Below, piece after piece: positions 15,398-36,021 of a DNA stretch of 64,000 nucleotides. The position numbers and the translations under genes are program-made. The stretch spans positions 44,232 to 108,231 of the forward strand of contig DATMWB010000003.1 in NCBI GenBank assembly GCA_035562735.1. Direction: 5' to 3'. Position 1 is the stretch's first letter, and each line of letters opens with the position of its first letter. Origin of the DNA: Candidatus Methanoperedens sp. GTDB lineage: Bacteria > Patescibacteriota > Microgenomatia > UBA12405. The notes beneath the pieces were generated by a model that had not been told where the DNA came from, did not search any database, and saw only the letters and a program-made list of their open reading frames with translations.

Positions 15398-15403
15398 CTC
15401 CCT

Positions 15404-17278
15404 ATGAACGCACGGGATTTGAAAAACAAATTTGTTGATTTTTTCAAAAACTATCAACATGCCGAAATTCCCAGTGCTTCAATTGTTCCCGAAAACGATC
15501 CCACCACTCTTTTCATTTCTGCTGGCATGCACCCCCTCGTTCCTTATCTCTTAGGTCAACCCCATCCTCTAGGCAAAAGGTTAGTTGATGTTCAAAAATG
15601 TATTCGTACTGGCGATATCGATGAAGTCGGTGATACCTATCATCACACTTTTTTTGAAATGCTTGGCAACTGGTCTCTTGGTGACTATTTCAAAAAAGAG
15701 ATGATTGCTTTTTCCTATGAGTTTTTAACCAACAAAAAATATCTAGGTCTTGATGTATCAAAATTAGCTTTCAGCTGTTTTGCTGGTGATCAAGACGCTC
15801 CTCGTGACGAAGAAAGTTTCAATTTTTGGCGTGAACAGGGAGTTAGTCCCAGCAGAATTGCCTATTTACCTAAAAAAAATAATTGGTGGGGTCCCGCTGG
15901 AGCTACTGGCCCCTGTGGTCCAGATACCGAAATGTTTTATTGGACAGGGGAGAGTGAAGCACCCGAAAAATTTGATGCCAATGATAGTCGTTGGTTGGAA
16001 ATTTGGAATGACGTTTTTATGCAGTACAACAAAAAAGCCAATGGTACCTTTGAAGCACTAAAAGCTCCAAACGTTGATACAGGTATGGGGGTTGAGCGAA
16101 CTACTGCAGTTTTATCGGGCTTATCGGATAATTATCAAACCTACATTTGGCAACCAATAATTCAAAAAATAGAGGAAATCTCTGGGAAAAAATATGTCGC
16201 TGCAATGAATAATCCCGTCATTGCGAGTAGCACATCCGTCATTGCGAGCGAAGCGAAGCAATCTTCTAAAAAAATCGCCACCTTATCTTCTACTTCTAAC
16301 GATGACGCCCGAAGTTTTCGCATTATCGCTGACCATATAAAGGCTGCAGTTTTTATGATTGCCGACAGTGTTGAACCCTCAAACAAAGAGCGTGGTTATG
16401 TTCTCCGTCGTCTTATTAGACGTAGTATCCGTCAAGGTAAAATTTTGGGAATAGAGCAAAATTTTTGCTCTATTATTGCCACTACTGTTTTAGACAATCA
16501 AAACAATTATGCTGGTACCTATTCCGAACTAGATTCAAACAAAAATAAAATTTTAGAGACTTTAGAGGCTGAAGAAACCAAATTTCGTCGCACTCTCAAC
16601 AAGGGTCTTAGTGAAATTACAAAATTAATTATCCGTCAAAAAAGTGTCTCCGGAAAAGAAGCTTTTGACTTATACCAATCCTTTGGTTTCCCCGTCGAAA
16701 TGATAGAGGAAGAATTAAGAAGAAACAATTTATCTTTAGATATTGCCGAGTTTAACCGTCTAAAAGAGGAACATCAAAAACTATCTCAAACTCTTTCTGC
16801 CGGAAAATTCAAGTCAGGTTTAGCTGATAATTCCGAAATTATCACCAAATATCACACTACTACCCATCTAATGCACGCCGCTCTTAGAAAAGTTTTGGGT
16901 GAGCATGTTGAACAAAGTGGTTCCAATATTACCTCAGAAAGACTTCGTTTTGATTTTTCCCATCCGCAAAAAGTTGCCGAAGATCAGCTAAAAGAAGTCG
17001 AAAAAATAGTCAATGAACAAATTAATGCCTCACTTTCCGTCACTGTGGAATCTATGAAATTTACTGATGCCCAAAAATCTGGTGCCTTAGCCTTTTTTGG
17101 CGCTAAATACCCAGAAATTGTTACTGTCTATACAGTCGGTGACCCAAAAAGTTTTTTTTCAAAGGAAGTCTGTACCGGCCCCCATGTCGATAATGTTGGG
17201 AAATTAGGTCATTTTGAAATTCAAAAAGAAGAATCCGCAGGCAGTGGCAAGCGTCGGATTTATGCTATTCTTAAGTAA
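15404..17278 (+). CDS. alaS: Alanyl-tRNA synthetase, short form lacking the C-Ala domain
   Basis: Met at 15404 aligns to the AlaRS N-terminus (…FVDFFKNYQHAEIPSASIVPENDPTTLF…). The catalytic and editing domains are present (HxxxH …CTGPHV). The ORF ends right after the editing domain. Confidence 0.88.
   Translation: MNARDLKNKFVDFFKNYQHAEIPSASIVPENDPTTLFISAGMHPLVPYLLGQPHPLGKRLVDVQKCIRTGDIDEVGDTYHHTFFEMLGNWSLGDYFKKEMIAFSYEFLTNKKYLGLDVSKLAFSCFAGDQDAPRDEESFNFWREQGVSPSRIAYLPKKNNWWGPAGATGPCGPDTEMFYWTGESEAPEKFDANDSRWLEIWNDVFMQYNKKANGTFEALKAPNVDTGMGVERTTAVLSGLSDNYQTYIWQPIIQKIEEISGKKYVAAMNNPVIASSTSVIASEAKQSSKKIATLSSTSNDDARSFRIIADHIKAAVFMIADSVEPSNKERGYVLRRLIRRSIRQGKILGIEQNFCSIIATTVLDNQNNYAGTYSELDSNKNKILETLEAEETKFRRTLNKGLSEITKLIIRQKSVSGKEAFDLYQSFGFPVEMIEEELRRNNLSLDIAEFNRLKEEHQKLSQTLSAGKFKSGLADNSEIITKYHTTTHLMHAALRKVLGEHVEQSGSNITSERLRFDFSHPQKVAEDQLKEVEKIVNEQINASLSVTVESMKFTDAQKSGALAFFGAKYPEIVTVYTVGDPKSFFSKEVCTGPHVDNVGKLGHFEIQKEESAGSGKRRIYAILK
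16216..16264 (+). repeat. Interspersed repeat copy A (partial unit plus full unit) inside the alaS coding sequence, in frame
   Basis: CGTCATTGCGAGtagcacatc + CGTCATTGCGAGCGAAGCGAAGCAATCT. It translates as VIASSTSVIASEAKQS within a loop insertion relative to canonical AlaRS. Confidence 0.7.
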
Positions 17279-19467
17279 TGGAGCTGTCCTATTATTGGCT
17301 TATTTCAATCACTACCGAAGTTGTTTCAGTGGGTCTGATAAAACGAGGTAATCCAAATACTTTGGCTGCGCTTGGTCCAGAAACCGAATGGCTTCCCGAC
17401 AATCCTGATTCATTTTTACACTCTGTTGATATTTCTTTATCAGAGGCGGCGCAAAAAGCTTCACTTGAGCCCGAACAAGAACCAGAAACAAGTGCTTTTA
17501 TCCTTCCACCAAAGTGGATCGGCAATGACGGTAAAATTTTTCCAGAATATTTAAAATTACTCGAAAACCTTTGTCGTTCTCTAAAATTAAAACCCCTTGG
17601 TTTTATCAGTAACGATGAAGCCTTCATCGAATCTCTTGGAAAAGAGGATTCATTCCCCCCAAGTTTTATTTTGGTATACCTTGGTATAAAAGAATTCTCC
17701 TTGTCCTTGGTATATCTTGGAGAAGTAAAAAAACGTTTTCATCAAGCCTTAAGTAATGATTTTACCCCTCAAGATTTAGAAAATGCTCTAGTTACTGTTC
17801 GTTTGGATTCAGCCTTACCCCCGAGAATTTTAGTCTTTGGTCATTTGGGATTAAGCATTATTGATGATTTAAAAAATTATTCTTGGATAGGTAAAAAAAA
17901 TGTTGAAACCTTTTTACATTTACCTGATGTTGAAGCCTATCAACCAGAGGAACTTTTTTCTTTGTATTGTAAAACCGTCTCCTCTCAAATTGAAAATAAA
18001 GCTCAAAATGCGTCACCCCCCCCAGTAGAAAAAGTTGATATCTCCGATAATAATCTCGAAGAGATAGCCGAGGAACCCATAGAAGAAATTGAAGAAACAG
18101 AAGAAGCTCCTAAAGACGAAAAAATATTTATCGAGGAAGATATAGAAAATTCCATAGATGAAGTTCCTGCGATGGATTTGGGTTTTTCCCAAATTACTGA
18201 CTCTGACTCTATTGTTTTGACTCCACCAACTTCTATTGATACAGACTCTTTTGCCAAGGAAAATATCGAGACTCAGTTACCCCCCTCAAAGTCCAACATA
18301 AATCTCCCTAAATTTTCCTTTCCCAAGATTTCTTTGCCAAGTTTAAAATTCAATCCTTGGTTCCTCTTTCCCTTGGCTCTTTCACCCCTACTTCTGCTCA
18401 TTCCCTACTATCTAATGAAAGCGGAAATTACGATAAATTTTACTCCAGTTGAGATAAACAAAGACTTCAATGTCACTCTTGATTCAACGGCTACTGATGT
18501 TACGACAAGTACCATTCCTGTTCTTAAAAAAACTCTTGATTTAAAGTTTTCAGAGTCTATTGCTACGACTGGTCAAAAAGAGACTGGTGACAAATCAAAA
18601 GGGGAAATTACCCTTTTTAACAAGGCTGACAAAATTCAAAATGCTCCCAAAGGCACAATACTATCTGACAACTCTGGTAAAAAATACGAACTACTCACTT
18701 CCATTCAAGTGCCCGCAAGTACCTTTGACCTCGCTGTTGGTAGTATTGCCATGGGAAAAATCAATGCCACCATAATTGCTAGTGATATTGGACCTGAGTT
18801 TGATTTAAATAAAGACACTCTTTTGTCCTTCAAAGATAACGCCAACTTACTGGCTAAAGTCAATGAAACAATTACCGGTGGAAGTCGACGTCAAATTAGA
18901 GTCGTCTCTTCCGAAGATAAAAGCAAATTAAATAAGGTCGTTACCGATTCTTTACCTACCCGCATTTCAGAAAAGGTTGACGCAGAATCTTCACTTGCTG
19001 GTCTTATGACTGGCACTCTCTTTGTCGACAAAAAACAACTCGATTTTAATCGTGAGATAGGTGAAGAGGCAGATACTCTTCAAGTAAATGCCAACTTGGT
19101 TCTTTCTTTGCTTCAAGTTGACCCCCAACAAAAAGAAAATATCCTAAAAACATTACTAGTAAATAATCAAGATGTTTTAAAATCTATTTCCTCACCCGCT
19201 GATTTTTCTTTTACTTTTAACGCCACCCAAAACACCTCATTAAAATCAACCGGAAAGTTGACCATAACAGGTAAGACACTTCCCAAAATTGATACTGAAA
19301 GCCTCCGTTCACGCTTAGTTGGGAAAAGTATCACTGACGCCTTGAGCATTGTAGATTCACAGTCCCGAGTTTATGATAGGGACATAAAGATAATTCCTTC
19401 CCCTTTCAAATTTCTCAAGCGTTTACCCCCATCTCGAGATAAAATTACCATTATCCAAAAATTTTAA
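17278..19467 (+). CDS. Membrane protein with a PilM/FtsA-like (actin-fold) cytoplasmic N-domain, an acidic linker, one TM helix and a beta-rich extracytoplasmic domain
   Basis: The N-terminal ~160 aa resemble the PilM/FtsA SHS2 region. An E/D-rich linker, a TM helix (WFLFPLALSPLLLLIPYYLM) and a ~350-aa C-terminal domain follow. The fold assignment is by eye only. Confidence 0.5.
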   Translation: MELSYYWLISITTEVVSVGLIKRGNPNTLAALGPETEWLPDNPDSFLHSVDISLSEAAQKASLEPEQEPETSAFILPPKWIGNDGKIFPEYLKLLENLCRSLKLKPLGFISNDEAFIESLGKEDSFPPSFILVYLGIKEFSLSLVYLGEVKKRFHQALSNDFTPQDLENALVTVRLDSALPPRILVFGHLGLSIIDDLKNYSWIGKKNVETFLHLPDVEAYQPEELFSLYCKTVSSQIENKAQNASPPPVEKVDISDNNLEEIAEEPIEEIEETEEAPKDEKIFIEEDIENSIDEVPAMDLGFSQITDSDSIVLTPPTSIDTDSFAKENIETQLPPSKSNINLPKFSFPKISLPSLKFNPWFLFPLALSPLLLLIPYYLMKAEITINFTPVEINKDFNVTLDSTATDVTTSTIPVLKKTLDLKFSESIATTGQKETGDKSKGEITLFNKADKIQNAPKGTILSDNSGKKYELLTSIQVPASTFDLAVGSIAMGKINATIIASDIGPEFDLNKDTLLSFKDNANLLAKVNETITGGSRRQIRVVSSEDKSKLNKVVTDSLPTRISEKVDAESSLAGLMTGTLFVDKKQLDFNREIGEEADTLQVNANLVLSLLQVDPQQKENILKTLLVNNQDVLKSISSPADFSFTFNATQNTSLKSTGKLTITGKTLPKIDTESLRSRLVGKSITDALSIVDSQSRVYDRDIKIIPSPFKFLKRLPPSRDKITIIQKF

Positions 19468-19469
19468 TC

Positions 19470-20201
19470 ATGAGTTATCTCTATGTTAAATCACCACCCA
19501 AGATTACTGCGCCCAAAAAAGTCATGTCGCCGCTGCGTCGAAAGATATTGGCCTCATTTTTTCTTGTTTCCGGCCTTTTGTTGTTTTTTTCAGTGGTCTT
19601 TCCCATAGTCCAATTTCAGCTTGAATATTCCACAAAGTTTAATCAAATTCTCAATCCACTTTCAAACCAATTCTACAACCAAAATGGTTCAGTTTTAGGT
19701 GATTTGAATACTGATTACACCGAATTATCGAATTGGTTTGTTAATGATTCAGAGGTGGTCTCATCTTCTTCACCAAGCTCCCTTATTACTACTTATTATG
19801 TATCCATTCCCAAATTGAAAATTGAGCAAGCGGCAGTCATTTTTGGTAGTACCGATTTGAAAAAATCACTTATCCAATATCCGAGAACCGCGCTTCCAGG
19901 TCAATTTGGATCTCCCGTTATCTTTGGCCATTCTGTGCTCCCTCAATTTTTCAACCCTAAGTCCTATATCACCATTTTTTCAACCTTACACAAATTGAAT
20001 CAAGGAGACGAAATATTTATTGATTATGATCATATCCGTTATAAATACGTCGTTGAAGAAATGTATGAAGTTCAACCTACCGACTTGTCGGTCTTAGAAC
20101 AGCGTTTTGATGGTCGATATCTAACCTTAGTTACCTGTTCTCCTCCTGGTACATATTTGCGCCGCTTAGTAATTAAAGCCCAAATTACCGACAATACATG
20201 A
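19470..20201 (+). CDS. Sortase family transpeptidase
   Basis: It has an N-terminal TM anchor, a catalytic His region (GHSVLP) and the TLVTC active-site motif. Confidence 0.7.
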   Translation: MSYLYVKSPPKITAPKKVMSPLRRKILASFFLVSGLLLFFSVVFPIVQFQLEYSTKFNQILNPLSNQFYNQNGSVLGDLNTDYTELSNWFVNDSEVVSSSSPSSLITTYYVSIPKLKIEQAAVIFGSTDLKKSLIQYPRTALPGQFGSPVIFGHSVLPQFFNPKSYITIFSTLHKLNQGDEIFIDYDHIRYKYVVEEMYEVQPTDLSVLEQRFDGRYLTLVTCSPPGTYLRRLVIKAQITDNT

Positions 20202-20572
20202 ACTATCTAGCTATTGATTATGGAACCAAAAGAATTGGTCTTGCCTATTCCCTAAACGGAATTATTTTTACTCTGCCCATTGTTCAAAATGACGACAAAA
20301 TTGTCGATATTCTAAAAAAAATTATTACTGAATATCAAATTGAAAAAATATTCATCGGTCTTTGTGAAGGGCCGATTGCAACAAAGACAAAAAAATTTAT
20401 TGATATGCTCACCCCCATGATAAAATTACCTATCGAAACAGTTGAAGAAGCGGTTAGTACAATCGAGGCTGAAAGTATTTTTTTAAAGAGTAAAAAAAAT
20501 ACCAAAAGTTACAAAAAACAAATCGATTCTGTAGCTGCTGCTGTAATTCTGAATCGAGTTATTGGTTTCTAA
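20198..20572 (+). CDS. ruvX: Putative pre-16S rRNA nuclease / Holliday junction resolvase YqgF
   Basis: It has the MNYLAIDYGTKRIGLA N-terminus typical of the YqgF/RuvX RNase H fold. Confidence 0.8.
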   Translation: MNYLAIDYGTKRIGLAYSLNGIIFTLPIVQNDDKIVDILKKIITEYQIEKIFIGLCEGPIATKTKKFIDMLTPMIKLPIETVEEAVSTIEAESIFLKSKKNTKSYKKQIDSVAAAVILNRVIGF

Positions 20573-20577
20573 AAACT

Positions 20578-20775
20578 ATGTTTAAAAATCTTATTTCCCC
20601 AATTCAAGCTTGGTTGTTGTCACAGGGTCGTTGTGTAGGATGTGGTGAAGAACTGTCTAAAGGACAAAGAAAAGTAATTCGAGGTCAAACAACTGTTACT
20701 TGTCGTTGTGGTAGGATATTTATCCATAACCATCAAAGTGACACCTATCGTCGAGCTCTTTTTAATGAAATTTAA
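20578..20775 (+). CDS. Small zinc-ribbon protein
   Basis: It has a CxxC…CxC cysteine arrangement (CVGCG…CRCGR). Confidence 0.35.
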   Translation: MFKNLISPIQAWLLSQGRCVGCGEELSKGQRKVIRGQTTVTCRCGRIFIHNHQSDTYRRALFNEI

Positions 20776-21698
20776 TGAAAAAACTTTTTTTTGTTTTTCC
20801 CCTAATTTTATTGCTTTTATTTGGACTATACATTTATAGTTTAACCTTTGCTCCCTCATCTGATACCACCAAAAAAGTTTTTGTAATAAATCAAGGAGAA
20901 CCTCTTCTGACCATTGCTTCAAGACTGGAAAAATTAAACTTTGTCCGTAGTCGATACGCCTTTATTGTCTATAGTCGATTGTCGGGTTTAAACACTCAAA
21001 TCAAAGCTGGTACTTTTTATCTTACTTCGTCAGAAAAACTTATCGAGCAAGCCCAAAGATTAACCAAGGGGGGTAGTACCGACTATTGGTTTAAAATTAT
21101 CCCCGGGTCTCGAATTGAAGAATTTTCCCCAGATACTGAATTTACCTCTGCTGCCCTTGGTCTTGAAGGTCAGCTTTTTCCTGATAGCTACTTAATTCCC
21201 AAGTATTACGTATCTTCGCAGATTCTTGACTTAATTTTAAAGAATTTTGAAGATAAGCAACTCGAAGCAAAAGGTAATTCTATCACTCCTTTTTCCGATT
21301 CCGAAGTGCTAGTTTTAGCTTCACTTTTAGAACGTGAAGCCAAAACATTGGCTGATAAAAAAATTATCGCTGGAATAATCAAAAATCGCCTAGACGTAGG
21401 CATGCCTCTTCAAATTGATGCCACTGTCCAATACGCCAAAGACTCTTTAGGCAACCCTGAAAAATACTGGAAGCCAATAAGCAAAGCCGATCTAAGCATT
21501 ATTTCTCCTTATAACACCTATAAAAACAAGGGATTACCCCCATCACCAATTTGTAATCCCGGTTTTGATTCACTAATTGCGGCCTATCATCCAACAGAAT
21601 CTAATTATGTCTACTACATCAATGATAATCAGGGAATTATGCATTACGCCAAAAATTTAGAAGAGCACAACACCAACGTGGCTAAATATTTAAGATGA
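20775..21698 (+). CDS. mltG: Endolytic murein transglycosylase MltG (YceG family)
   Basis: It has an N-terminal TM helix and YceG-like motifs (…KAGTFYL…, …LQIDATVQYA…). Confidence 0.8.
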   Translation: MKKLFFVFPLILLLLFGLYIYSLTFAPSSDTTKKVFVINQGEPLLTIASRLEKLNFVRSRYAFIVYSRLSGLNTQIKAGTFYLTSSEKLIEQAQRLTKGGSTDYWFKIIPGSRIEEFSPDTEFTSAALGLEGQLFPDSYLIPKYYVSSQILDLILKNFEDKQLEAKGNSITPFSDSEVLVLASLLEREAKTLADKKIIAGIIKNRLDVGMPLQIDATVQYAKDSLGNPEKYWKPISKADLSIISPYNTYKNKGLPPSPICNPGFDSLIAAYHPTESNYVYYINDNQGIMHYAKNLEEHNTNVAKYLR

Positions 21699-22261
21699 GA
21701 CAAGCCAAGCTAGTAAAAAGAGAAATTTTATTTGATAAATACGGTAAAAAGTTTATCGTTGATAATTTAGAGCAGCTTGATGGTAAGCCCGACTTTTGGG
21801 CTTATGTCTCCGCCCCCAGAGGTTCAATCATTGTCGCTATCGATAAAGACAAAAACTTAATTCTTGTTCATCAATATCGATATACCTTAAAAGATTTTAC
21901 ATACGAAAACCCTGCTGGAGCTGCCGATAAAAATGAAAATCTTTTAGAAACCGCCAATAGAGAGCTTTTTGAAGAAACAGGCTACAAGTCGAATCAATTT
22001 ATAAATCTTGGAAATTTTCATGATCTCCCCAACGAAACAGATCACCAATGTCAAATATTTTTAGCACTAAATTGCCAATTTATAGAAAAACCCGCCCTTG
22101 ATCCCTTTTCCGAAATATATTGTGAAATGACGACCGAAATTCATCCCTTTATTGATATTTACAATTCACTTGGTCAAGATACCTCACTTATAAAAAGCTC
22201 CGAACATACCGCTGCCATTTTCCTCGCCCATCGCTATCTCTCTACTCATAACTTACTTTAA
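21695..22261 (+). CDS. NUDIX hydrolase
   Basis: It carries the Nudix box (…GAADKNENLLETANRELFEETGY…). Confidence 0.7.
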   Translation: MRQAKLVKREILFDKYGKKFIVDNLEQLDGKPDFWAYVSAPRGSIIVAIDKDKNLILVHQYRYTLKDFTYENPAGAADKNENLLETANRELFEETGYKSNQFINLGNFHDLPNETDHQCQIFLALNCQFIEKPALDPFSEIYCEMTTEIHPFIDIYNSLGQDTSLIKSSEHTAAIFLAHRYLSTHNLL

Positions 22262-22266
22262 AAAAA

Positions 22267-22307
22267 CGTCATTGCGAGGAGCATTTGCTGAAGCGATGTG
22301 GCAATCT
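22267..22307 (+). repeat. Interspersed repeat copy B (divergent) between convergent gene ends
   Basis: CGTCATTGCGAGgagcatttgctgaagcgatgtgGCAATCT. Confidence 0.55.
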
Positions 22308-22328
22308 CAAAGGGATTGATTTTGTTTT

Positions 22329-23417: not shown

Positions 23418-23474
23418 TTGCGTTGTAAATATATCATAGTTGCGTCACCTTAGAAAAAATGAGAATATTATTTC

Positions 23475-24566
23475 ATGACTGATACAAATCAAGACCCAAA
23501 CTACCAAGATATTTTAAATAAGTATGCTGATAGTTTAAAACCAAGCGAAGCATTACCATCTCAAGACCAAGCACCTAGTCCTCAAGATCAATTAGAATCA
23601 GTCCCAGAACCATCAGTCTCAGTTCCAGAAATCACCCCCCCTCCAACCATGCTTGAACCAGATCCAACCGCTGAGATGCTTCCAGACACCGAACCCCAAA
23701 CCGCAGTTATGACCGAAGCCAATTCCGAATCAATCGCTTTTTCTCCTCCGACTTCTGACACTACCAGCGATTTCGATAAAAAACCAGCCGAAACAGTCAC
23801 CGAGCCACCCAAAGATTTCTCTATTCCTCAGCCAGAAGTTCAAATTCCTCCATCAATGCAAGATTATGTTGATTCTTCAAAAACAGACAAACTAGATAGT
23901 ATCATTCCTTCACCTCCCATGACTTCAGATTCCTTTATTCCACCAGCTCCTCATCCAATAAATATTGCCCCAGATATCGAGGTACCAAAAGAAAATCATT
24001 TTTTTAAATACCTATTTTTCTTCTCCTTGATAATTTTTATTGTCGTAGCTGCCTTGCTGGCTTATTCATTTTATAGGACTCAAAAATCAACCACTGATGT
24101 AAAAAGTGTTCCCACCAATACCCCTCCGACAGGTCTTCCTGCTTCAAAATGTCTCATAAATGGTGAAGAATATGACATTGGTCAGTCTTTTCCTGCCTCT
24201 GACGGTTGTAATACCTGTTCTTGTGATAAAGACCTCTTGATTGCCTGTACTACTATGGCCTGTGACGCTAGTAATTCAGCAACTCCTACCGAATCTACCA
24301 CTATTTCAGCAGTCTCCAAAACAGCTCAGGAAGCATGTCAGCTAGAAAAATTTACCTGGCTAAGTAAATACTCTGAATGTGAAGATGCCAGTTCTAATCC
24401 GACAAATTTACAAAAACTAAAGACAATCTGTGAAACATACAAGGGTACACTCAATGAAACTGCCGATAGTTGTCGCCATGTTACGGAACCACCTTGTGGA
24501 CCTGAAGCCGTTGCTGTTTGTTCCTTTGCTGTGCCTACAATTCCAAAAACTACAATTGCACCATAA
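23475..24566 (+). CDS. Pro-rich membrane protein with a C-terminal Cys-rich extracytoplasmic domain
   Basis: It has a P/S/T/E-rich N-terminal half, a TM helix (LFFFSLIIFIVVAALLAYSFY) and a C-terminal domain with at least 14 cysteines. Confidence 0.5.
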   Translation: MTDTNQDPNYQDILNKYADSLKPSEALPSQDQAPSPQDQLESVPEPSVSVPEITPPPTMLEPDPTAEMLPDTEPQTAVMTEANSESIAFSPPTSDTTSDFDKKPAETVTEPPKDFSIPQPEVQIPPSMQDYVDSSKTDKLDSIIPSPPMTSDSFIPPAPHPINIAPDIEVPKENHFFKYLFFFSLIIFIVVAALLAYSFYRTQKSTTDVKSVPTNTPPTGLPASKCLINGEEYDIGQSFPASDGCNTCSCDKDLLIACTTMACDASNSATPTESTTISAVSKTAQEACQLEKFTWLSKYSECEDASSNPTNLQKLKTICETYKGTLNETADSCRHVTEPPCGPEAVAVCSFAVPTIPKTTIAP

Positions 24567-24569
24567 AAC

Positions 24570-25220
24570 ATGGACAGGTCAGACTTTTTCAAAATAGACA
24601 AGTCAGTAGTCCTTCTCTTATTTTTAGTTGTCATCCTTATTATCTCTATTATTATGCTGGTAAATTATCAGCGGACATTGGTTCTCTCCCATAACGCCGA
24701 TACTATTATTGCCGCTATTCCAACTCGTTCACCCTCAAATTCAAAAGTCAAAATATCTGCTACTCCTACACCCGACTTTCGTGCCAACTGGAAAGAATAT
24801 GAAAATAGGGAATATGGCTTTATGTTCAGATATCCTGAAAAATTAAATGCTATCAAAGACCCCCACTTTGATGGTAGAAGCATAGTATTAATTACCGATG
24901 ACACCCGAGAAACTGTAACTGCTAGCGGTTGGTTTGGAATTTTTGTCGCCATAAAACCAAATCCATCAAATTATGATTCAAAATCATATATTGAATGGCA
25001 AGTAAAAAATGACCCCCTCAATTCAGGTGTCAAAATCAAAAAGGCAAATGTTGTCGGCATTGATGCCTCAATCACCCAAGGGGAAGTTGTCAATAACAAC
25101 GGTGAAATAGGGCCAAAAGTTTATATCTCCAAAGGAGATAGTATTATTCTTCTCACCCCAAACCATTCTCAATACTTCGAAATACTAAGTCAAATAATTC
25201 CGACATTTAATTTTTTATAA
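24570..25220 (+). CDS. FKFT-motif family secreted protein (paralog)
   Basis: It has an N-terminal TM anchor, a YENREYGFMFRYPEKLN motif and a C-terminal …ILSQIIPTFNFL. Confidence 0.5.
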   Translation: MDRSDFFKIDKSVVLLLFLVVILIISIIMLVNYQRTLVLSHNADTIIAAIPTRSPSNSKVKISATPTPDFRANWKEYENREYGFMFRYPEKLNAIKDPHFDGRSIVLITDDTRETVTASGWFGIFVAIKPNPSNYDSKSYIEWQVKNDPLNSGVKIKKANVVGIDASITQGEVVNNNGEIGPKVYISKGDSIILLTPNHSQYFEILSQIIPTFNFL

Positions 25221-25223
25221 TTT

Positions 25224-25988
25224 ATGAAAAAATCCACTTTTTTTCTATATATCCTCACTGCCTTCTTTTTTGTCTCCGTTCTTATCTTGGCTTACCTTAA
25301 TTATTTTAGCTCTTCAAAAATACCCTCTACCGCAAAGCCTATTGATAATCCGAGCATTCTCCCCACTAAAACCGTCAATTTAACAATATCTCCAAGTATT
25401 ACCTCCTCACCTTTGTCACTTTCAAATTTAAAGACTTATACTGGCCAAGATTTTGTTTACTTAAACAACATATATAGTGCCTATACTTTTAACTATCCTG
25501 ATTTTTGTACTCTAAAAGATGACACCTTAAGCTGTACTCTAAAAAACAGCCTTGCCACTATACAAATAAATGCTGGTGGTCATGGCGGTGGCGAAGGGAA
25601 TTATCAGGTTCTTGTTGATAACCAATCAAAAATTTTTAACTCCATTGAGGGAAAACTAACCGCCATTGAAGACTTAGACAACAAAACTGTTTTTGGAACT
25701 TACTGGATAAACAAAACCCCAAAATTAACCCAAGAACCTATTTTTGGTTTTGAATTCTATGGCCTTTCTTCGTCAGACTTCAATGAATTTAAAACGCTTT
25801 TTGAACAACTATTGTCCACCTTCAAATTTACAGAGAATACGACCCCTTTTTCTTCTCAAGATCTTAATCAAGGCTGGTATTGGGGTCTTGAAAATCAGAA
25901 AAAAATAAATACACCTACAGACTGGGTATTTGCAGAAGCCGGTAAAAGTTCCTGTTGGCATTCTCCTGATAAAAACTGTAATCTTTAA
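25224..25988 (+). CDS. FKFT-motif family secreted protein (paralog)
   Basis: It has an N-terminal TM anchor and a C-terminal region with …FEQLLSTFKFTEN…. Confidence 0.5.
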   Translation: MKKSTFFLYILTAFFFVSVLILAYLNYFSSSKIPSTAKPIDNPSILPTKTVNLTISPSITSSPLSLSNLKTYTGQDFVYLNNIYSAYTFNYPDFCTLKDDTLSCTLKNSLATIQINAGGHGGGEGNYQVLVDNQSKIFNSIEGKLTAIEDLDNKTVFGTYWINKTPKLTQEPIFGFEFYGLSSSDFNEFKTLFEQLLSTFKFTENTTPFSSQDLNQGWYWGLENQKKINTPTDWVFAEAGKSSCWHSPDKNCNL

Positions 25989-25997
25989 TCAACCCCC

Positions 25998-26026: not shown

Positions 26027-26084
26027 TCCCACATTCGGCGAGCGGTTGGAACATAACTCGTCATTTAAACTTTAATAGTTAAAT

Positions 26085-29345: not shown

Positions 29346-32300
29346 TGTTTAAATTTAAAAATATGCTCGATTTCACTGGTATCGAGATAAAACTTGCCTC
29401 TCCAGAGGAAATTTTATCCTGGTCTACTGGTGAAGTTCTAAAACCTGAAACTATTAACTATCGCTCTTGGCGTCCAGAAAAAGACGGTCTTTTTTGTGAA
29501 AAAATCTTTGGACCCTCTCGCGACTATGAATGTTACTGTGGCAAATACAAAAAAATCCGATTCAAAGGTGTTATTTGTGATAAATGTGGTGTTGAAGTAA
29601 CTACTAGCAAAGTTCGACGTGAACGAATGGGTCATATTGCCCTTGCCGCTCCTATTGCTCATTTATGGTATCTTCGAAACACCCCATCACCATTAGGTGT
29701 TATTCTCGATGTTCCTCAAAAAGAATTAGAAGCCGTTGTTTATTTCACTAAATATTTAGTGACCGCTGTTGATAACGACAAAAGAAAAGAAGCTTTAAAC
29801 AATTTAGCTATCAATTCTGAAAATCGTCAAAAACAAATCGATGTCGATTCCGCTGCTGCAATTGAAAGATACAAGACTCAAACAGCCAAGGAAAAGAAAG
29901 AACTTGACAACAAAATCAAGAACAAAGATCAGCTCCTAATTGCCAAAGAAGAACGTGATGTTCGTCTAAAACAAGACATTCAAAAAATTGAAAACAAAGC
30001 AACTTCCGAAAAAAATCGCATCGAATCCTTGATCAAATTCTTGGAAGATAAAATCAAAAGCATGGAAGTCCTCTCTGTCTTAACCGACGAAGAAGAATTT
30101 TATCTTGCCCAATTTAAGGCCGATATTTTCTACAAGGCAAAAATGGGTGCCGAAGCTTTATTAGAAGTACTAAAAAATATTGATCTTCCAGAGACTGTAA
30201 AAAATCTAAAAAAAGAATTAGCCAAAACTTCTTCAAAACTCAAGAAAAAGAAAATCATGTACAAGATTAGAATCCTAAATGGCATGATTGAAAATTCTAT
30301 TAATCCTTCATGGATGATAATGCAATATGTCCCAGTTATTCCACCAGATCTCCGTCCTATGGTCCAACTCACTGGAGGCCGATTTGCAACTTCAGATTTA
30401 AATGACCTTTATCGACGTCTTATCAACCGCAACAACCGTCTTAAAAAATTAATCAAACTAGGTGCTCCAGAAATTATTCTCCGAAATGAGAAGAGAATGC
30501 TTCAGGAATCCGTTGATATTCTTATTGATGCTCAAAAAAGCTCTAAGAATAAACGAAAAAGTAGCAAACGTTTACCTCGATCACTTTCTGACCTTCTTCG
30601 TGGTAAAAAAGGACGTTTCCGACGTAATCTTCTTGGAAAACGTGTTGATTATTCAGGTCGCTCCGTTATTGTAGTCGGTCCAGAATTAAAACTAAATCAA
30701 GTCGGTCTTCCAAAAGAGATTGCTCTTGAAATGTATCGACCTTTCGTTTTGAAAGAATTGATGGATAGCGGTCTAGCTGCTAACATCAAATCCGCCAAAA
30801 ACTTGATTGACCACCGTGTCAACGAGGTTTATGACATTTTGGAAAGAGTTACAAAAAATACTTATGTTCTCTTAAACCGTGCTCCAACCCTCCACAAGCT
30901 TTCAATTCAGGCATTCAAACCAGTTTTGACCGATGGTTTGGCTATTAGGCTTCATCCTTGTGTCTGTAAAGGTTTCAATGCTGACTTTGATGGAGATCAA
31001 ATGGGTGTCCATTTGCCTCTTTCCGCCGCAGCTCAAAAGGAAGCCAAACATCTCATGCTTCCTTCAAGAAATCTTCTCAAACCTTCAGATGGTGCTCCAG
31101 TTTCAATTCCATCCCAAGAAATGGCCGTCGGTTGTTACTACATCACTTCCGTAAATTCTGCTGATATTTCCAAAGAAAATCAAGAAGGATTTAAGGACTT
31201 ATCCATTATGGGTGATACTGAGGAATTAACATTAGCCTATCAAACAGGCAAAGTTGGTCTTCGTGAATTGGTCGTTGTCAGAATGGATGGTAAGCTCGTT
31301 AAAACCACCTATGGTCGAGTTTGGTTCAATTCCATACTTCCAAAAGAATTTGAATATATTAATGCACCTATGGCTGGCTCAAAAGCCCTAAACGACCTTA
31401 TCGTCAAGTCTATTGAAATTGCTGGACGTCTAAAAACAGTCCGCTTAATCGATTCTCTAAAAGATATAGGTTTTGCCGGATTTACTCTATCTGGACTTTC
31501 ATTAGCCATGCCTGACATGGGTTATCTATCTGAGAAAGAAGGGATAATTGCCGCCGCCGACAAACGCGTTGTGGAAATTGAAGACAACTATAAAATGGGA
31601 CTTATTAGTAATGAAGAGAAAAAGCGTCTAAGTCAATCTGTATGGATGGAAATTACCGAATCCATCGCTGAAAAAACTTGGGACACTCTTGATATTGATT
31701 CTCCTATCCGAGTAGTTTCTGCAGCTGGTATTAAGCGTGCCTCAAAAGATCAAATCAAACAGCTCTCCGGTATGCGTGGACTTATGGTTGATCCAACAGG
31801 TAAAATCGTTCAACTTCCCACCAAAAGCAATTTCCGTGAAGGTTTATCAGTCTTTGAATACATTACTGGTGCCCGAGGTACTCGTAAAGGTTTGGCTGAC
31901 ACAGCTTTACGTACTGCTGACGCTGGTTATTTGACCCGACGTTTAGTGGATACATCCCACGTAGCTATTACCCGAGAGGATGACTGTGGTACAACTCGTT
32001 TTTGGACCATTGATAGAAACGAAAAAGGTCGTGAGAAATATTTCGGACGTCGACTTTTAGGTCGTGTCTTAGCCAATGACGTTATTGATCCTGCTACAAA
32101 AAAGATTGTTGCCAAAAAAGGCGATCTTATAGATAACAACCTTCAAGCAATTATCGAAGCTACTGAGGTCAAAACAGTTGATATTCGATCCGCACTAACC
32201 TGTAAATCAAAAGTAGGTCTTTGTCGTAAATGTTATGGATGGGATCTCTCTACCCGTCAGATGGTTGGTTTTGGAGTTCCAGTTGGAGTTGTTGCCGCTC

Positions 32301-33085
32301 AATCAGTCGGAGAACCAGGTACCCAGCTTACTCTTCGAACTAAACACACTGGTGGTGTCCTTGGTGTCGACGTTACCCAAGGTTTGCCTCGTATCCAAGA
32401 ACTCTTTGAAGTCAGAATGCCAAAGCTACCTTCTCCATTAGCTGAGATTGACGGTAAGATCAAAGTAAAAGAAAATGTCGATGGTTACGAATTAAAATTA
32501 ACTGGAAAAGATAAAAATGGTGCTGCCAAGACAATAAATTATCTTCTTCCAAGCAATGTTACTCTCTTAGTTGGAGATGGTGACCTTGTGGGTCAGGGAA
32601 CTCAACTATGTTCTGGTCCTATCGATGTTCGTGAAATTCTTGAAGTTTCAGGTTTAGAAGCAGCTCAACGCTATCTCATCAACTCAATTCAAGGAGTCTA
32701 CGAATCCCAAGGTATTGCTATTCACGACAAACACATTGAAGTAATTGTTCGTGAAATGAGTGACAAGCTAAAAATTGAGGATCCAGGTGATACCAATTTC
32801 CTTTATGGTCAAATCGTTACTAGACCAGTCTACGAAGAAGCCAATAATAAAGTAAAGGAAAACAACAAAGATGGTAAAGCCTCAAAAGGACACAAAGTAC
32901 TTTTGGGTCTTATCCAATCATCTCTTACTACTGGATCATGGCTTTCTGCAGCCTCTTTCCAACAAACCACTGGAGTTTTAACCGAAGCTTCCTTACTTGC
33001 CGAGGTTGATAGCTTGATAGGTTTGAAAGAAAATGTTATTATCGGACGTCTGATTCCTGTAGGAAAGGGTCAGGAAATTAAATAA
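29345..33085 (+). CDS. rpoC: DNA-directed RNA polymerase subunit beta'
   Basis: 1246 aa with the zinc-binding CxxC…Cxx[10 protein letters not shown] and trigger loop. Confidence 0.95.
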
Positions 33086-33087
33086 TT

Positions 33088-33510
33088 ATGCCAACTTTTA
33101 ATCAACTAATCAGTAAATGTCGAAAGGTCCGACGTCTTAAATTAAGAACCGGTGCACTTCGAGACAATTTTAATAGTATAAAAAGTACTAGTATTGACAG
33201 TTACAATCCCCAAAAGAAAGGGGTAGTAACAGTGGTCAAGACGATGACTCCAAAAAAACCTCATTCTGCTTTACGAAAAGTAGCTAGGGTAAGATTAAGC
33301 AATCGAGCCACTGTCACCGCTTACATTCCTGGTATCGGACATAATTTAGCCGAACATGGTATCGTCTCTATCCGTGGTGGACGTGTTCGAGATCTTCCTG
33401 GTGTTCGTTATCATATTATTCGCGGTAAATATGACGCTGGTGCTGTTGTCGGTCGTCAACAATCCCGCAGCAAATACGGTGCAAAACGTTCTGCTCCGGC
33501 TAAAAGCTAA
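33088..33510 (+). CDS. rpsL: 30S ribosomal protein S12
   Basis: It has the PTxNQL and KKPNSALRK motifs. Confidence 0.95.
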
Positions 33511-33527
33511 TCCATTTAAAAAAATAT

Positions 33528-34010
33528 ATGTCAAGAAAAGGTCAAATAAAAATTAGAGAAGTCCTACCCGACACTGAATACAAGAGTGTTGTAGTTACCA
33601 AGCTTATCAATCGTGTTATGTATGCCGGCAACAAAAATGCTGCTCAAAAACAGGTTTATGAAGCATTGCAACTTTTTAAAAAAGAAAGTAAAAGTGAAGA
33701 TATTATTACTACTCTCGAACAAGCACTTGATAATTTGAAACCAAAAGTTGAGGTTCGTCCTCGTCGTATTGGTGGCGCTGTTTATCAAGTTCCCACACCT
33801 GTGCGAGGTAGTCGTCAATATTCCCTTGCCATTCGCTGGTTGGTAACTTCAGCTAGAAAAAGACCCAACAAACAATATCATTCCTTTGCCCTAAAGTTAG
33901 CTGCCGAACTCTTAGCCACCCTAAACAATGAGGGCTCTTCTATTGCTAAGCGTCAAGAAATTGAGAGAATGGCCGAAGCCAATCGCGCCTTTGCTCATTT
34001 GCGTTGGTAA
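33528..34010 (+). CDS. rpsG: 30S ribosomal protein S7
   Basis: 160 aa, typical S7. Confidence 0.95.
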   Translation: MSRKGQIKIREVLPDTEYKSVVVTKLINRVMYAGNKNAAQKQVYEALQLFKKESKSEDIITTLEQALDNLKPKVEVRPRRIGGAVYQVPTPVRGSRQYSLAIRWLVTSARKRPNKQYHSFALKLAAELLATLNNEGSSIAKRQEIERMAEANRAFAHLRW

Positions 34011-34027
34011 AAAGCTAATTGCAATAA

Positions 34028-34063
34028 TTCGTCATTGCGAGGAGGTACTCCGACGAAGCAATC
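34028..34063 (+). repeat. Interspersed repeat copy C (between the rpsG stop and a terminator)
   Basis: TCGTCATTGCGAGgaggtactccgacGAAGCAATCT. Confidence 0.7.
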
Positions 34064-34074
34064 TATTTTAAAAT

Positions 34075-34102
34075 AAAAAAGTCCCCTGTATAGGGGACTT
34101 TT
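34075..34102. terminator. Rho-independent terminator after rpsG (bidirectional-type hairpin)
   Basis: AAAAAGTCCCCT-gtat-AGGGGACTTTTT, a 12-bp stem with flanking A and T runs. Confidence 0.75.
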
Positions 34103-34136
34103 TAGTTATTTGTTCTATCATGTATCTGATATATAT

Positions 34137-34145
34137 TGATATAAT
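34137..34145 (+). promoter_or_regulatory. Extended -10 TGaTATAAT 5 nt upstream of ATG 34151 (leaderless geometry)
   Basis: Its spacing to the ATG is identical to that of the 7737 element, with no SD. Confidence 0.4.
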
Positions 34146-34150
34146 AAGTA

Positions 34151-34570
34151 ATGTCGAGGTATGAATTGTTTCAACACTTAGTTGGAGAAGAAATAAGAAA
34201 AAGTAATCCCCATGGCAAATTACAGGTTGTTGGCGATACCTCTACTTTAGAAGACGACGAAAGACTTTTCCATATCGCTGGGGAACTCATTTCAAATTGT
34301 GCCGAAAAGGGAGCTGAAGAGATAACTTTAACTCTAACACCACGGCTAATAGTCGTAGAAGACAATTTAGTTCACACCCCAGAAGAAGTGGAAAAAATTC
34401 TTGAAAATATTCAGCAACCACTACCAGTAACCAATAAAGCTATCGTTGAAAACGGTCAATCAATTCGTGGTTTTGGTATTTTTAGTGTTCGAAACACTCT
34501 CCTTGAAATTGGTGCTTCCTTGTTTTATGAACATCGTGATGGTCGAATAATCGCTAGAGTTGAATTATAA
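34151..34570 (+). CDS. Small GHKL (histidine-kinase-like) ATPase domain protein, anti-sigma-factor/SpoIIAB-like size
   Basis: 139 aa with an N-box-like ELISNCAEKG and a G-box-like GFGIFSVRNTLLEIGASL. There is no sensor or DHp domain. Confidence 0.5.
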   Translation: MSRYELFQHLVGEEIRKSNPHGKLQVVGDTSTLEDDERLFHIAGELISNCAEKGAEEITLTLTPRLIVVEDNLVHTPEEVEKILENIQQPLPVTNKAIVENGQSIRGFGIFSVRNTLLEIGASLFYEHRDGRIIARVEL

Positions 34571-34615
34571 GAAAGAAATCTGGTTAGACTATTTTGTTTT
34601 GTGTTAACATAATTT

Positions 34616-36004
34616 ATGTCATTATTTTCAAAATCAAAAGTTGTTCTCTGGCCAAAAGATGAAAGCCTAGAAATATATTTAGACCGAAGTGACAACAACA
34701 CCTTTTCTTTTGAAACAAATCTTTGGAGTGAACAAGGTGATGATAGTTTAAATAGTTTAGCCAGCTTTTTTAAACAAAATAAAATATCCGAGGCATATGT
34801 TCTCCTAAATGACACTTATGTTATTACCAAGACTTTTATTTACGATTCTGTTGTCACTAAGCTCGATCCAAATGAAGTCATAACCTTGGCCAAAGATTCA
34901 ATAGATTTCAAAATATCACCCGAGTCTGTTACCTTTGATCTTGAGTCTGAAGGAAATCGGACTTTAGTTCGAACAAGAATTTTCAATCAGGATAAATTTC
35001 AAATACTTACTGCCAATCTCCAAAAAATTGGTCTAAAAGTACTTGATTTTGAAACCGTATCTTCATCTGTGGCCAAGCTTTACACCAATTTTGATAACGG
35101 TCAGTATTTTTTCTTTTACCCCATAAATACCCACGATTACGTTGCTATCCTAAGCAACAAAGGAAATGTTTACTTAACCTCAATTATCAAAAAATCTCTT
35201 CCGGAACTTAAGAAGTTATTAAATTACGCTCAAGCCTATTTTAGCAACAAGGAGCCAACCCAATATTTGCCAGATACCAATTACAACGAATCCGAAATTT
35301 GTCAACGTTTTCAAAAAGCGTCAAATCTACCTCTACCAGTTCTATCTTTCTTTATTGGCCAATCGAAGCCTGTTGCTGATATAATAAAGACAGAAACAAC
35401 CCAGACGCTTCCCCCAACGCCTACTTCTAATATTATCGATTCAACAAATAATCCCTTACCAACTATGGAAAACAACAAAAAAAGTCTTTTACCAATAATT
35501 GCTGTTTTTATCATCACCGCAATTGTTGCCTCAATTATTGTTTGGTTTATATTAAACCAAAACAAAGATACTGATTTAAATCCAGGTGGTGAAAACCCGG
35601 CAGAAGAAATAAGTAGTACCCCAATGGCAACCGAAGAACCAACTCCTACTATTGCTGAGCTTAGTAAAACCCTAAAAATACAGGTGCTAAATGCCACCGA
35701 CATAAATGGTCAAGCAGCCACTATCAAAACTGAATTGACCAACCTCGGTTTCACTAGTATCAATACAGGTAACAGCAAAGAAGCAGCAACCAGCAACCAA
35801 ATTCAAATAAAAAAGACCATTGTTCCGGACTATTTTCTTAAAAACGTGGCTCAATTTTCGACAGCAACAGTCAGTGAGTTATCTGAAACTTCAACCTATG
35901 ATGTTGTCTTTATTATTGGGGTAGATCTCAAAACTGGAAGTGCCGCTCCTACAGCGACAACTCCCACTACAACTAGTACCCCATCAGCTACTCCCACTAA
36001 TTAG
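34616..36004 (+). CDS. Membrane protein with a PilM-like cytoplasmic N-domain, one TM helix and a C-terminal LytR_C domain
   Basis: The N-terminal ~290 aa resemble PilM (…FQILTANLQKIGLKVLDFETVSSSVAKLY). A TM helix (LLPIIAVFIITAIVASIIVWFIL) and a LytR_C-like C-terminus (LKIQVLNATDINGQAATIKTELTNLGF…VVFIIGVDL) follow. Confidence 0.5.
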   Translation: MSLFSKSKVVLWPKDESLEIYLDRSDNNTFSFETNLWSEQGDDSLNSLASFFKQNKISEAYVLLNDTYVITKTFIYDSVVTKLDPNEVITLAKDSIDFKISPESVTFDLESEGNRTLVRTRIFNQDKFQILTANLQKIGLKVLDFETVSSSVAKLYTNFDNGQYFFFYPINTHDYVAILSNKGNVYLTSIIKKSLPELKKLLNYAQAYFSNKEPTQYLPDTNYNESEICQRFQKASNLPLPVLSFFIGQSKPVADIIKTETTQTLPPTPTSNIIDSTNNPLPTMENNKKSLLPIIAVFIITAIVASIIVWFILNQNKDTDLNPGGENPAEEISSTPMATEEPTPTIAELSKTLKIQVLNATDINGQAATIKTELTNLGFTSINTGNSKEAATSNQIQIKKTIVPDYFLKNVAQFSTATVSELSETSTYDVVFIIGVDLKTGSAAPTATTPTTTSTPSATPTN

Positions 36005-36021
36005 TAATTAAAAAAATCACT

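Follow-up and report, generated by a model that had tools for sequence, protein, structure and literature searches.

Actin-like folds at the bacterial membrane

The solved structures closest to the two N-terminal domains described here are those of FtsA, PilM and GspL, which have the actin/ASKHA fold. PilM, with the subdomain layout 1A/1C/2A/2B, is a soluble protein encoded in pilMNOPQ that binds ATP and the N-terminus of PilN, half of the PilN-binding groove being formed by 1C. In FtsA, 1C is the recruitment and polymerisation surface and 2B the site for the FtsZ peptide. GspL (EpsL/XcpY), of the inner-membrane platform of type II secretion, consists of a cytoplasmic nucleotide-free actin-like domain, one transmembrane helix and an outside domain, which is of the ferredoxin-like GspL/PilN type. 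For the parts outside the membrane, the described systems to be compared are VirR and Cei, which have only a short cytoplasmic tail, and the wedge proteins of phage and tailocin baseplates (P2 J / Mu gp47 / T4 gp6; PF04865, PHROG 6).

The window analysed here, a 64-kb stretch of DNA from an uncultured Candidatus Shapirobacteria bacterium (Microgenomates, Patescibacteria/CPR), encodes two proteins, ORF1 and ORF2, for which the original prediction had proposed PilM/FtsA-like cytoplasmic heads, a single membrane helix and different extracellular tails. All genes and domains for which start and end positions in the window are given below lie on the + strand. Both proteins are bitopic, with one transmembrane helix each according to hydropathy and the AF2 models, which have a mean pLDDT of 83 and exceed 90 across most of both heads. 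The models also bear out the actin/ASKHA fold of both N-terminal domains, whose absence the prediction had named as its refutation, so that the proposed likeness to PilM and FtsA holds at the level of the fold, but it does not extend to the sequence models: searches of Pfam, NCBIfam and PDB sequence profiles found nothing for either head, the PilM models (PF11104 / TIGR01175) gave no Pfam or NCBIfam match at E <= 1 for ORF1 or ORF2, and the FtsA models (TIGR01174 / PF14450) gave no direct HMM match for the ORF1 head. The direct fusion of an actin-fold head to an outside domain, also put forward in the prediction, is present, but bitopic actin-fold proteins were already known from GspL. Neither architecture was found described in our literature searches.

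Comparison of the two heads and loss of the nucleotide motifs

The heads had been treated as alike, which is correct for the shared fold but not for the sequences, since BLASTP between them gave E > 3, with no paralogy detectable by sequence, and hhalign a probability of 2.5% (E 0.019). The weak hhalign alignment falls in a structurally equivalent helix-strand-helix region ('LKLKPLGFISNDEA' vs 'IGLKVLDFETVSSS').

Compared with the four subdomains of PilM, the ORF1 head consists of 1A and 2A, while the ORF2 head has a 1C-type insert and no 2B. Unlike PilM, both are membrane-tethered and have neither ATP motifs nor pil neighbours: no gene for PilB, PilC, PilT, PilD, a pilin or a secretin is present in the 64-kb window, and no pil genes adjoin the homologues in the relatives' loci examined. 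With GspL they share the overall layout; however, similarity to its sequence is undetectable, the outside domains are LytR_C (ORF2) and baseplate-J (ORF1) instead of the ferredoxin-like domain, no type II secretion genes (GspE/F/M or others) lie near ORF1 or ORF2 in the window, and the organism belongs to the monoderm-type CPR bacteria.

In every member examined of both families, other residues stand in place of the phosphate-1, phosphate-2 and adenosine motifs, so that the earlier description of the heads as an ATP-binding scaffold is not supported. The corresponding positions read ISIT, YLGIKE and FG--H in ORF1, and the ORF2 family has invariant prolines at both phosphate-loop positions (WPK and YP(L/I)N). 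From these motifs it is predicted that both heads have most likely lost ATP binding. The opposite reading, in which they retain ATPase or kinase activity by means of non-canonical residues, could appeal to the overall ASKHA fold, kept at high confidence, and to some distant fused members that have an acidic residue at phosphate-1 (LEI/VEI) and, at the adenosine motif, the remnant N-G-G. We consider it extremely unlikely, given that the canonical D-x-G...K, D-x-G-G-G-T and G-G-G loops occur in no member examined, that the prolines of the ORF2 family are invariant and that an actin-like domain free of nucleotide is already known from GspL. As the nucleotide-binding loops are lost, the heads would most likely be ATP-independent docking modules, as in GspL.

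ORF1: a trimmed FtsA-like head and a baseplate-wedge ectodomain

The cytoplasmic head of ORF1 (aa 1-243; 17278-18006) is a minimal actin/ASKHA core, confirmed as an ASKHA domain by Foldseek, in which Ppx/GppA, EutJ and ParM score level with FtsA and PilM. Because this ranking is generic for ASKHA proteins, the assignment to FtsA depends mainly on hhalign, in which the profile of the head matched an FtsA-like protein of Patescibacteria with E 2.5e-7. In the global alignment with this protein the 1C and 2B regions are cleanly deleted and the ATP motifs replaced. As judged from these profile comparisons, an FtsA paralogue was trimmed to give the head, with 1A and 2A kept and 1C and 2B lost.

The head is followed by an acidic, disordered cytoplasmic linker (aa 244-358; 18007-18351; pLDDT <50 for aa 243-348) with a conserved D-L-G-F motif, in which G302 and F303 vary little or not at all, and with juxtamembrane hydrophobic-Pro-Lys repeats. 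The transmembrane helix (approximately aa 359-381; 18352-18420) corresponds to a model helix of aa 360-379 and to the only hydrophobic 19-mer window of the protein that scores above 1.6.

The remaining part (aa 382-729; 18421-19464) had been described as a beta-rich extracellular domain of 350 aa. It is indeed an extracellular domain, but its identity had gone unrecognised: it has the complete wedge fold of phage baseplates (Baseplate_J / gp47 / phrog_6), with full-length Foldseek alignments to the wedge proteins of phi812, XM1 and Mu. The copy in the window matches neither Baseplate_J nor the PHROG models itself, but it is linked at E 1e-30 to 1e-37 to relatives that do; 25 of 63 family members matched Baseplate_J (PF04865; best 3.5e-7) and 4 of 9 matched phrog_6 (best 7.6e-10). 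A conserved 'TGG...(V)S.ED' motif of the ectodomain is presumably similar to one found in the J family. Although the fold is shared over the whole length with the phage and tailocin wedge proteins, the ORF1 domain differs from them in being anchored outside the cell membrane, fused to a cytoplasmic FtsA-like head and encoded in a housekeeping operon without other tail genes. On the basis of the structural models, we regard the ectodomain as a domesticated phage baseplate-wedge (J/gp47) fold.

The phage-like fold could also indicate a structure for host contact or adhesion of an episymbiont, or the remnant of a tailocin or prophage baseplate, in either case with no role in the assembly of the bacterium's own wall. 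Baseplate proteins mediate surface contact, and to our knowledge all cultivated Patescibacteria are episymbionts. This alternative is nevertheless very unlikely, since no sheath, tube, spike or other tail gene, nor any other phage gene near ORF1, was found in the window, no tail genes were found in 70 related loci, and ORF1 keeps the same place among housekeeping genes (alaS-ruvX-mltG) in 68 species and in distant lineages. A constant place of this kind is typical of a core gene and not of a prophage remnant or a fast-evolving host-range gene.

The ORF1 locus and its sortase

Upstream of ORF1 lies alaS (alanyl-tRNA synthetase; 15353-17278; Pfam tRNA-synt_2c, E 2e-129), whose stop codon overlaps the start codon of ORF1 (TAATG). 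The sortase that had been noted immediately downstream from its TLVTC motif was correctly identified (19470-20201; PF04203, E 5.9e-22): it is a protein of 243 aa with an N-terminal transmembrane anchor, begins 2 nt past the ORF1 stop codon (junction TAA-tc-ATG) and contains the catalytic His/Cys/Arg triad within VIFGHS, TLVTC (the TLxTC motif) and YLRRL. None of the NCBIfam sortase classes (A-F) reaches its cut-off for this protein. It is followed by ruvX/yqgF (20198-20572; Pfam RuvX, E 2.4e-23) and mltG/yceG (20775-21698; Pfam YceG, E 6.6e-63).

The order alaS-ORF1-sortase-ruvX-mltG is kept in all 68 evaluable GTDB species loci (68/68), in each of which a sortase follows the ORF1 homologue, as it also does in the window and in four further loci (L001, L008, L009 and L013). 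RuvX and mltG come after the sortase in nearly all of 70 loci. In 11 relatives, extra unrelated small genes lie between sortase and ruvX, which on a first reading of the sequence are DUF559-type endonuclease-like, NUDIX-like and multi-pass transporter-like; none carries a sorting signal. A conserved position in a housekeeping operon, for ORF1 as for ORF2, shows co-inheritance and probably means co-expression, and no shared function is concluded from it.

Sortase substrates whose C-terminus carries a sorting signal, defined as an LPXTG-like motif with a hydrophobic segment and a short tail behind it, were sought in the window and in the flanks of the relatives; none was found, the candidates being spurious ORFs only. 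As a possible sorting signal, the C-terminus of ORF1 itself (RLPPSRDKITIIQKF) was dismissed, as no transmembrane segment follows it and its conserved proline is also present in forms of the system without a sortase.

The split form in other Patescibacteria

In other Patescibacteria the same slot is occupied by two genes, the first FtsA-like with intact motifs and the second for a TM-baseplate-J protein, and the sortase is absent. This split form, with the FtsA-like gene directly upstream, was seen in L002/L003 and in L012, where it is placed between alaS and ruvX-mltG. The best model for the FtsA-like genes (L002, 4766-5977; L012, 3735-4997) is TIGR01174 ftsA, with E 7e-28 and 7e-35, and their scores of 98-121 bits stay below the FtsA equivalog cut-off of 175.85. 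Two further candidate partners of this kind, the proteins encoded upstream of P0221 (339 aa) and P0218 (267 aa), proved not to be FtsA-like. By analogy with GspL on the one hand and PilM plus PilN on the other, fused ORF1 and the split form are a fusion/split pair.

ORF1 might be seen as a component of the divisome. As an FtsA paralogue integrated in the membrane, it would tie filaments of FtsZ or FtsA to an extracellular domain in the manner of an FtsQ/FtsN-like bridge, the link to the sortase being secondary. We consider this rather unlikely. The fused ORF1 head lacks 2B and 1C, and with them the FtsZ-peptide site and the recruitment and polymerisation surface of FtsA, and its gene lies outside any dcw/ftsZ division gene cluster, with no ftsZ in the window. 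It further differs from FtsA in the loss of the nucleotide motifs and in the fusion to an ectodomain.

ORF2: an actin-like head with a LytR_C domain

The cytoplasmic head of ORF2 (aa 1-250; 34616-35365) has an actin fold of the PilM/GspL/FtsA type, with PilM and GspL as the top structural matches and an alpha/beta subdomain inserted at the 1C position (approximately aa 66-138). The transmembrane helix (approximately aa 291-315; 35486-35560; model helix aa 292-318) coincides with the hydropathy maximum of 3.0. The extracellular LytR_C domain (approximately aa 350-440; 35663-35935), which the prediction had rightly named, exceeds the Pfam gathering score (PF13399), has the LytR_C fold and is followed by a Thr/Pro-rich tail. 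No Pfam match to the catalytic LytR_cpsA_psr domain was found in ORF2, which makes it one of the LytR_C 'solo' proteins as the term is used in PMC11832169, from which the role of LytR_C is also taken. Whereas VirR and Cei have only their short tail in the cytoplasm, ORF2 adds an actin-fold head of 250 aa; its score against the NCBIfam model of Cei is 35 bits at a cut-off of 150, and phylum and wall chemistry differ.

The family is narrow. The head profile retrieved 36 clusters among 1.84 billion representatives and no PilM, FtsA or GspL, and nearly all clusters with full-length proteins measure 436-525 aa. In the four lineages examined, ORF2 homologues are located in the str operon between rpsG and fusA, right after rpsG. 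In the window, rpsL and rpsG (33088-34010, identified from their translations) are the conserved upstream neighbours, with fusA at 42342 and tuf at 45845 downstream, and the order rpsL-rpsG-ORF2 homologue is also present in L004, L006 and L015. The genes rmlBCD lie near ORF2 in the window, L004 and L006; as a universal link they were rejected because they are not near it in L015.

The GHKL ATPase that had been reported as a neighbour of ORF2 is an orphan HATPase_c-like ORF of 139 aa (34151-34570), scoring 26.8 bits where the cut-off is 26.4. It is absent at the same position in L004, L006 and L015, and in the window a terminator-like hairpin (34076-34103) precedes it, for which reasons the adjacency is taken to be incidental. 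LCP genes, which the prediction had suggested seeking together with pilin and PilB/PilC genes, were likewise absent from the window, including the surroundings of ORF2.

ORF2, alone or together with ORF1, could also be read as an alignment subunit of the PilM-PilN/GspL type in a type IV pilus or in a filament machine akin to it, with the head docking a PilB/GspE-type ATPase and the ectodomain replacing the periplasmic domain of PilN/GspL. The structural matches of ORF2 and the bitopic layout of GspL agree with such a role, type IV pili are common in Patescibacteria, and at one split-form locus (L012) an N_methyl pilin-like gene lies approximately 4 kb upstream. Against it stand the missing pilus genes in the window and next to the homologues at the loci examined, the LytR_C and baseplate-J ectodomains, and an ORF1 head without the 1C half of the PilN groove. 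A pilus role is therefore distinctly unlikely, and ORF1 and ORF2 are probably envelope-assembly scaffolds.

Proposed role and significance

On balance, we suggest that ORF1 and ORF2 are lineage-specific bitopic envelope proteins, whose heads would serve, by analogy with GspL, as nucleotide-independent docking modules or scaffolds for the assembly of wall and surface. Both would connect a partner in the cytoplasm with the assembly of wall or surface on the outer side of the membrane: ORF1 would position the sortase next to MltG-linked peptidoglycan synthesis, and ORF2 would organise the attachment of wall glycopolymers.

Much of bacterial diversity belongs to the Patescibacteria/CPR, and how they build their envelope and divide is largely obscure; annotation is lacking for most of their conserved membrane proteins, and two 'hypothetical' or minimally annotated families are now given a concrete anatomy. 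A tempting mis-annotation is also corrected, as these are not PilM proteins and the ORF1 and ORF2 loci give no evidence of a pilus system. Judging from the sequences, the FtsA/PilM/GspL-type actin fold appears to have been put to use on at least two further occasions as a transmembrane coupler free of nucleotide. ORF1 adds a complete baseplate-wedge fold in a non-phage use on the cell surface and a strictly conserved partnership with a sortase, and the fusion/split pair names a testable partner for it, the FtsA-like paralogue. Were the split form to be present in Saccharibacteria that can be cultivated and genetically manipulated, its function would be open to experiment.

A more far-reaching possibility, which we regard as speculative and unlikely to hold in full, is that ORF1, sortase and MltG form a new envelope machine of the Microgenomates. 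An FtsA-derived, membrane-integrated pseudo-ATPase would read the position of the division or elongation cytoskeleton and pass it to the domesticated wedge domain, which, by its likeness to the wedge proteins in baseplates, may oligomerise outside the membrane into a platform that places sortase-mediated anchoring at new wall. ORF2, with its actin-fold head and LytR_C domain, would be a second, independent invention for the attachment of wall glycopolymers. If this is true, CPR bacteria have turned degenerate actin folds into transmembrane couplers more than once.

The two proteins and their host lineage

ORF1 (17278-19467, + strand, 729 aa) and ORF2 (34616-36004, + strand, 462 aa) are both intact, and hydropathy places a single transmembrane (TM) segment in each, at about aa 359-381 in ORF1 and aa 291-315 in ORF2. 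Full-length conservation extends over 90 database clusters for ORF1 and 238 for ORF2, and at least ten contigs, judging by their matching lengths, apparently carry both families, which reflects a shared genomic region. A sortase (PF04203, E 5.9e-22, His/TLVTC/Arg triad) starts on the + strand 2 nt after the ORF1 stop codon, and ORF2 carries a LytR_C domain above the Pfam threshold. Since intact reading frames, one TM segment each, the sortase, LytR_C and a HATPase_c match beside ORF2 were all recovered, the observation behind the original prediction, two single-TM proteins of which one precedes a sortase and one bears LytR_C, is confirmed.

MAGs of Candidatus Shapirobacteria and other Microgenomates (Patescibacteria/CPR) contain an identical ORF1 as well as closely related versions of both proteins. 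The public record of the exact match is labelled 'Candidatus Methanoperedens sp.', while 'uncultured Gammaproteobacteria' or 'Bdellovibrionales' is the label on many MAG contigs related to it; such labels are unreliable, because both the genes present and the nearest named relatives indicate Shapirobacteria. The window has about 38% GC. Although nearly all its genes lie on the + strand, its GC skew stays below zero over almost the whole length (cumulative -2.28), contrary to the bias usual for leading strands. An unusual strand composition disparity is reported for a Microgenomates genome (PMC7143001). The window also encodes a 363-aa protein (23475-24566) with a single TM helix; its N-terminal half is rich in Pro, and its ectodomain, rich in Cys, has sub-threshold matches to eukaryote-type Pacifastin (E 8e-6) and VWC (6e-4) modules. 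Two N-terminally anchored proteins (24570-25988) with no family match follow.

Actin-fold heads

Neither N-domain is recognised by Pfam or NCBIfam, nor by searching PDB sequences with a profile. The predicted actin fold was nevertheless recovered in both by AlphaFold2 (mean pLDDT 83 in both models, above 90 over most of each head). In ORF1, the model of aa 1-243 has both beta-beta-beta-alpha-beta-alpha-beta-alpha halves by which the ASKHA/actin fold is defined; Foldseek supports this fold without singling out FtsA or PilM, as Ppx/GppA, EutJ and ParM score similarly. PilM, GspL and FtsA are the three families with a subdomain 1C. At the 1C position, the model of ORF2 contains an alpha/beta insert (about aa 66-138), the most conserved part of the head (TKSFIYD...EV..LA...FKI, alignment A2, 80 sequences), while 2B is lacking, and on this secondary-structure order we infer that its head is closest to GspL in size and subdomain content.

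The motifs expected of an ATP-binding scaffold, as proposed originally, are replaced in both families. A Patescibacteria FtsA-like protein has the canonical D-V-G-T-S, D-I-G-G-G-T-T-D and C-G-G-G-T; the ORF1 family (alignment A1, 63 sequences) has I-S-I-T at the phosphate-1 turn (L-E-I-H/N in distant members), Y-L-G-I-K-E at phosphate-2 and F-G-(gap)-H as adenosine motif, and the ORF2 family has invariant W12-P13-K14 and Y168-P169 at the two phosphate-loop positions. That these actin-fold proteins are active ATPases is very improbable beside such replacements. Membership in PilM likewise fell away: searched against 1.84 billion representatives, the ORF2 head profile retrieves 36 clusters, nearly all full-length ones having 436-525 aa, which fits a head-TM-LytR_C layout, and no PilM, FtsA or GspL. 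We regard a pilus or secretion platform as unlikely. Because the ATP motifs are replaced and PilM is not matched by sequence, both heads are better described as degenerate, probably nucleotide-free actin-fold docking domains; a relationship between the two is undetectable by sequence. A bitopic actin-fold coupler that binds no nucleotide is already known in GspL. P0256 (317 aa, E 6.5e-4), weakly related to the ORF2 head and encoded on a 1.1-kb contig (L014), consists of head, linker and C-terminal TM helix without LytR_C and is, to judge from its sequence, a tail-anchored version of this head.

ORF1 as a fused two-gene module

Distant relatives of ORF1 (P0089, P0090 and P0221-P0223) have only the TM helix and ectodomain in common with it, whereas the cytoplasmic part of each is an unrelated ~90-aa domain. 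In two independent lineages, a separate FtsA-like gene (403-420 aa) lies directly 5' of the TM-ectodomain gene, namely of P0089 at loci L002/L003 and of P0223 at locus L012, where the pair is located between alaS and ruvX-mltG. These upstream genes are mutually orthologous (hhalign E 1.5e-55), retain all ATP motifs and match TIGR01174 FtsA best (E 7e-28 and 7e-35, under the equivalog cut-off), with PilM at just ~1e-10; no sortase occurs at the split-form loci. The ORF1 head profile aligns with the split-form protein (hhalign probability 93%, E 2.5e-7) in register across subdomain 2A and a common C-terminal 'PW...(F/L)P(E/D)VE' region, and in global mode the ORF1 head shows a clean deletion of the 1C block and a 2B-like block. 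Because the head matches the FtsA-like protein and the TM-ectodomain part is shared, ORF1 is, from these sequence comparisons, the fused version of this two-gene module, an evolutionary relation the same as that of GspL to PilM plus PilN. We hold the architectural and evolutionary statements on ORF1 and ORF2 with high confidence.

Between head and membrane, an acidic disordered linker (18007-18351, aa 244-358) contains a nearly invariant D-L-G-F motif (G302, F303), and its membrane-proximal part has repeated hydrophobic-Pro-Lys units (LPKFSFPKISLPSLKF), kept even in 25%-identical relatives; both could be partner-binding or membrane-interface motifs. Outside the membrane, Pfam Baseplate_J is matched by 25 of the 63 family members (best E 3.5e-7) and PHROG 6 'baseplate wedge subunit' by 4/9 diverse ectodomains (best 7.6e-10). 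The window copy itself has no direct match to these HMMs; relatives that do match them are linked to it with E 1e-30 to 1e-37. With Foldseek, the ectodomain aligns over 344-357 columns with the phi812, XM1 and Mu wedge proteins (347-404 residues; E 1e-7 to 5e-6). As modelled, the ectodomain is a domesticated wedge fold. No further phage tail genes lie near ORF1, and a host-contact structure built on this fold seems very unlikely.

Gene neighbourhood of ORF1

The ORF1 start codon overlaps the alaS stop (TAATG), and the order alaS-ORF1-sortase-ruvX-mltG is kept in distant fused homologues with 24-35% identity (loci L001, L008, L009 and L013). In the window, ftsK and a RodZ-like HTH_25 protein with a Glucodextran_B/Ig-like C-domain (10095-12835) lie upstream of alaS-ORF1; the same pair does so at these four loci, and therefore the conserved block is larger, from ftsK to mltG, and to rpoBC downstream in the window, L001 and L008. 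We give a divisome bridge, which partly overlaps with the reading favoured below, a small but appreciable chance. Among 70 loci, one genome per GTDB species, tblastn found the sortase directly 3' of the ORF1 homologue in 68, the other two being contig ends, and it is more conserved (53-85% identity) than ORF1 (33-75%). Neither the window nor the relatives' flanks yielded a protein with a sorting signal. In some relatives (L045, L046, L049, L052, L071, L080 and L086), small unrelated genes lie between sortase and ruvX, including a helical protein of about 175 aa and one of about 125 aa, DUF559/endonuclease-like on first reading, which suggests a hotspot for selfish insertions inside the conserved block.

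ORF2 in the str operon

The str operon of the window (rpsL-rpsG ... fusA-tuf) is split by about 7.8 kb of cargo (34151-41934), comprising ORF2, rmlB, rmlC, rmlD, a radical-SAM protein (38633-39742), an unknown 226-aa ORF and lastly a flavin amine-oxidase-like gene (40699-41934, - strand). The genes rpsL-rpsG lie directly upstream of ORF2 homologues in L004 and L006 (42-45% identity) and in L015, the most distant full-length homologue found. The ORF2 family is an insertion within the str operon, because in L015 fusA follows directly and the homologue is the sole insert; the interval to fusA holds rmlB-rmlC-rmlD plus a few variable genes in the window as well as in L004 and L006. A strong terminator-like hairpin (34076-34103, 12-bp stem, then a T-run) comes right after rpsG. 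The GHKL ATPase noted beside ORF2 is a 139-aa ORF (34151-34570) between hairpin and ORF2 that barely matches HATPase_c (26.8 vs threshold 26.4 bits). It is present in the window only, being missing at the equivalent position of related genomes, and resembles a lineage-specific insertion or the remnant of a histidine kinase.

Proposed functions

In M. tuberculosis, envelope integrity is maintained by VirR and Cei, which are LytR_C solo proteins; VirR is located where wall is nascent, associates with itself and uses LytR_C to contact LCP ligases (PMC11832169). By analogy, ORF2 would be a LytR_C wall-assembly scaffold to which a docking head of GspL type has been added on the cytoplasmic side. 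ORF1 would link a partner in the cytoplasm, via its FtsA-derived head or the linker D-L-G-F motif, to an extracellular wedge-fold platform acting with the co-encoded sortase beside the glycan-strand terminase MltG. We put forward these functional readings tentatively, at somewhat less than even probability.

Neither architecture was found described in the literature searched, and homologues are publicly annotated as 'hypothetical protein' or 'LytR C-terminal domain-containing protein'. An FtsA-derived head with a baseplate-wedge ectodomain and an invariant sortase is more surprising than the ORF2 architecture. While function in these uncultured organisms is inferred, the anatomy of both proteins is solid and undescribed, and it indicates a testable partner.
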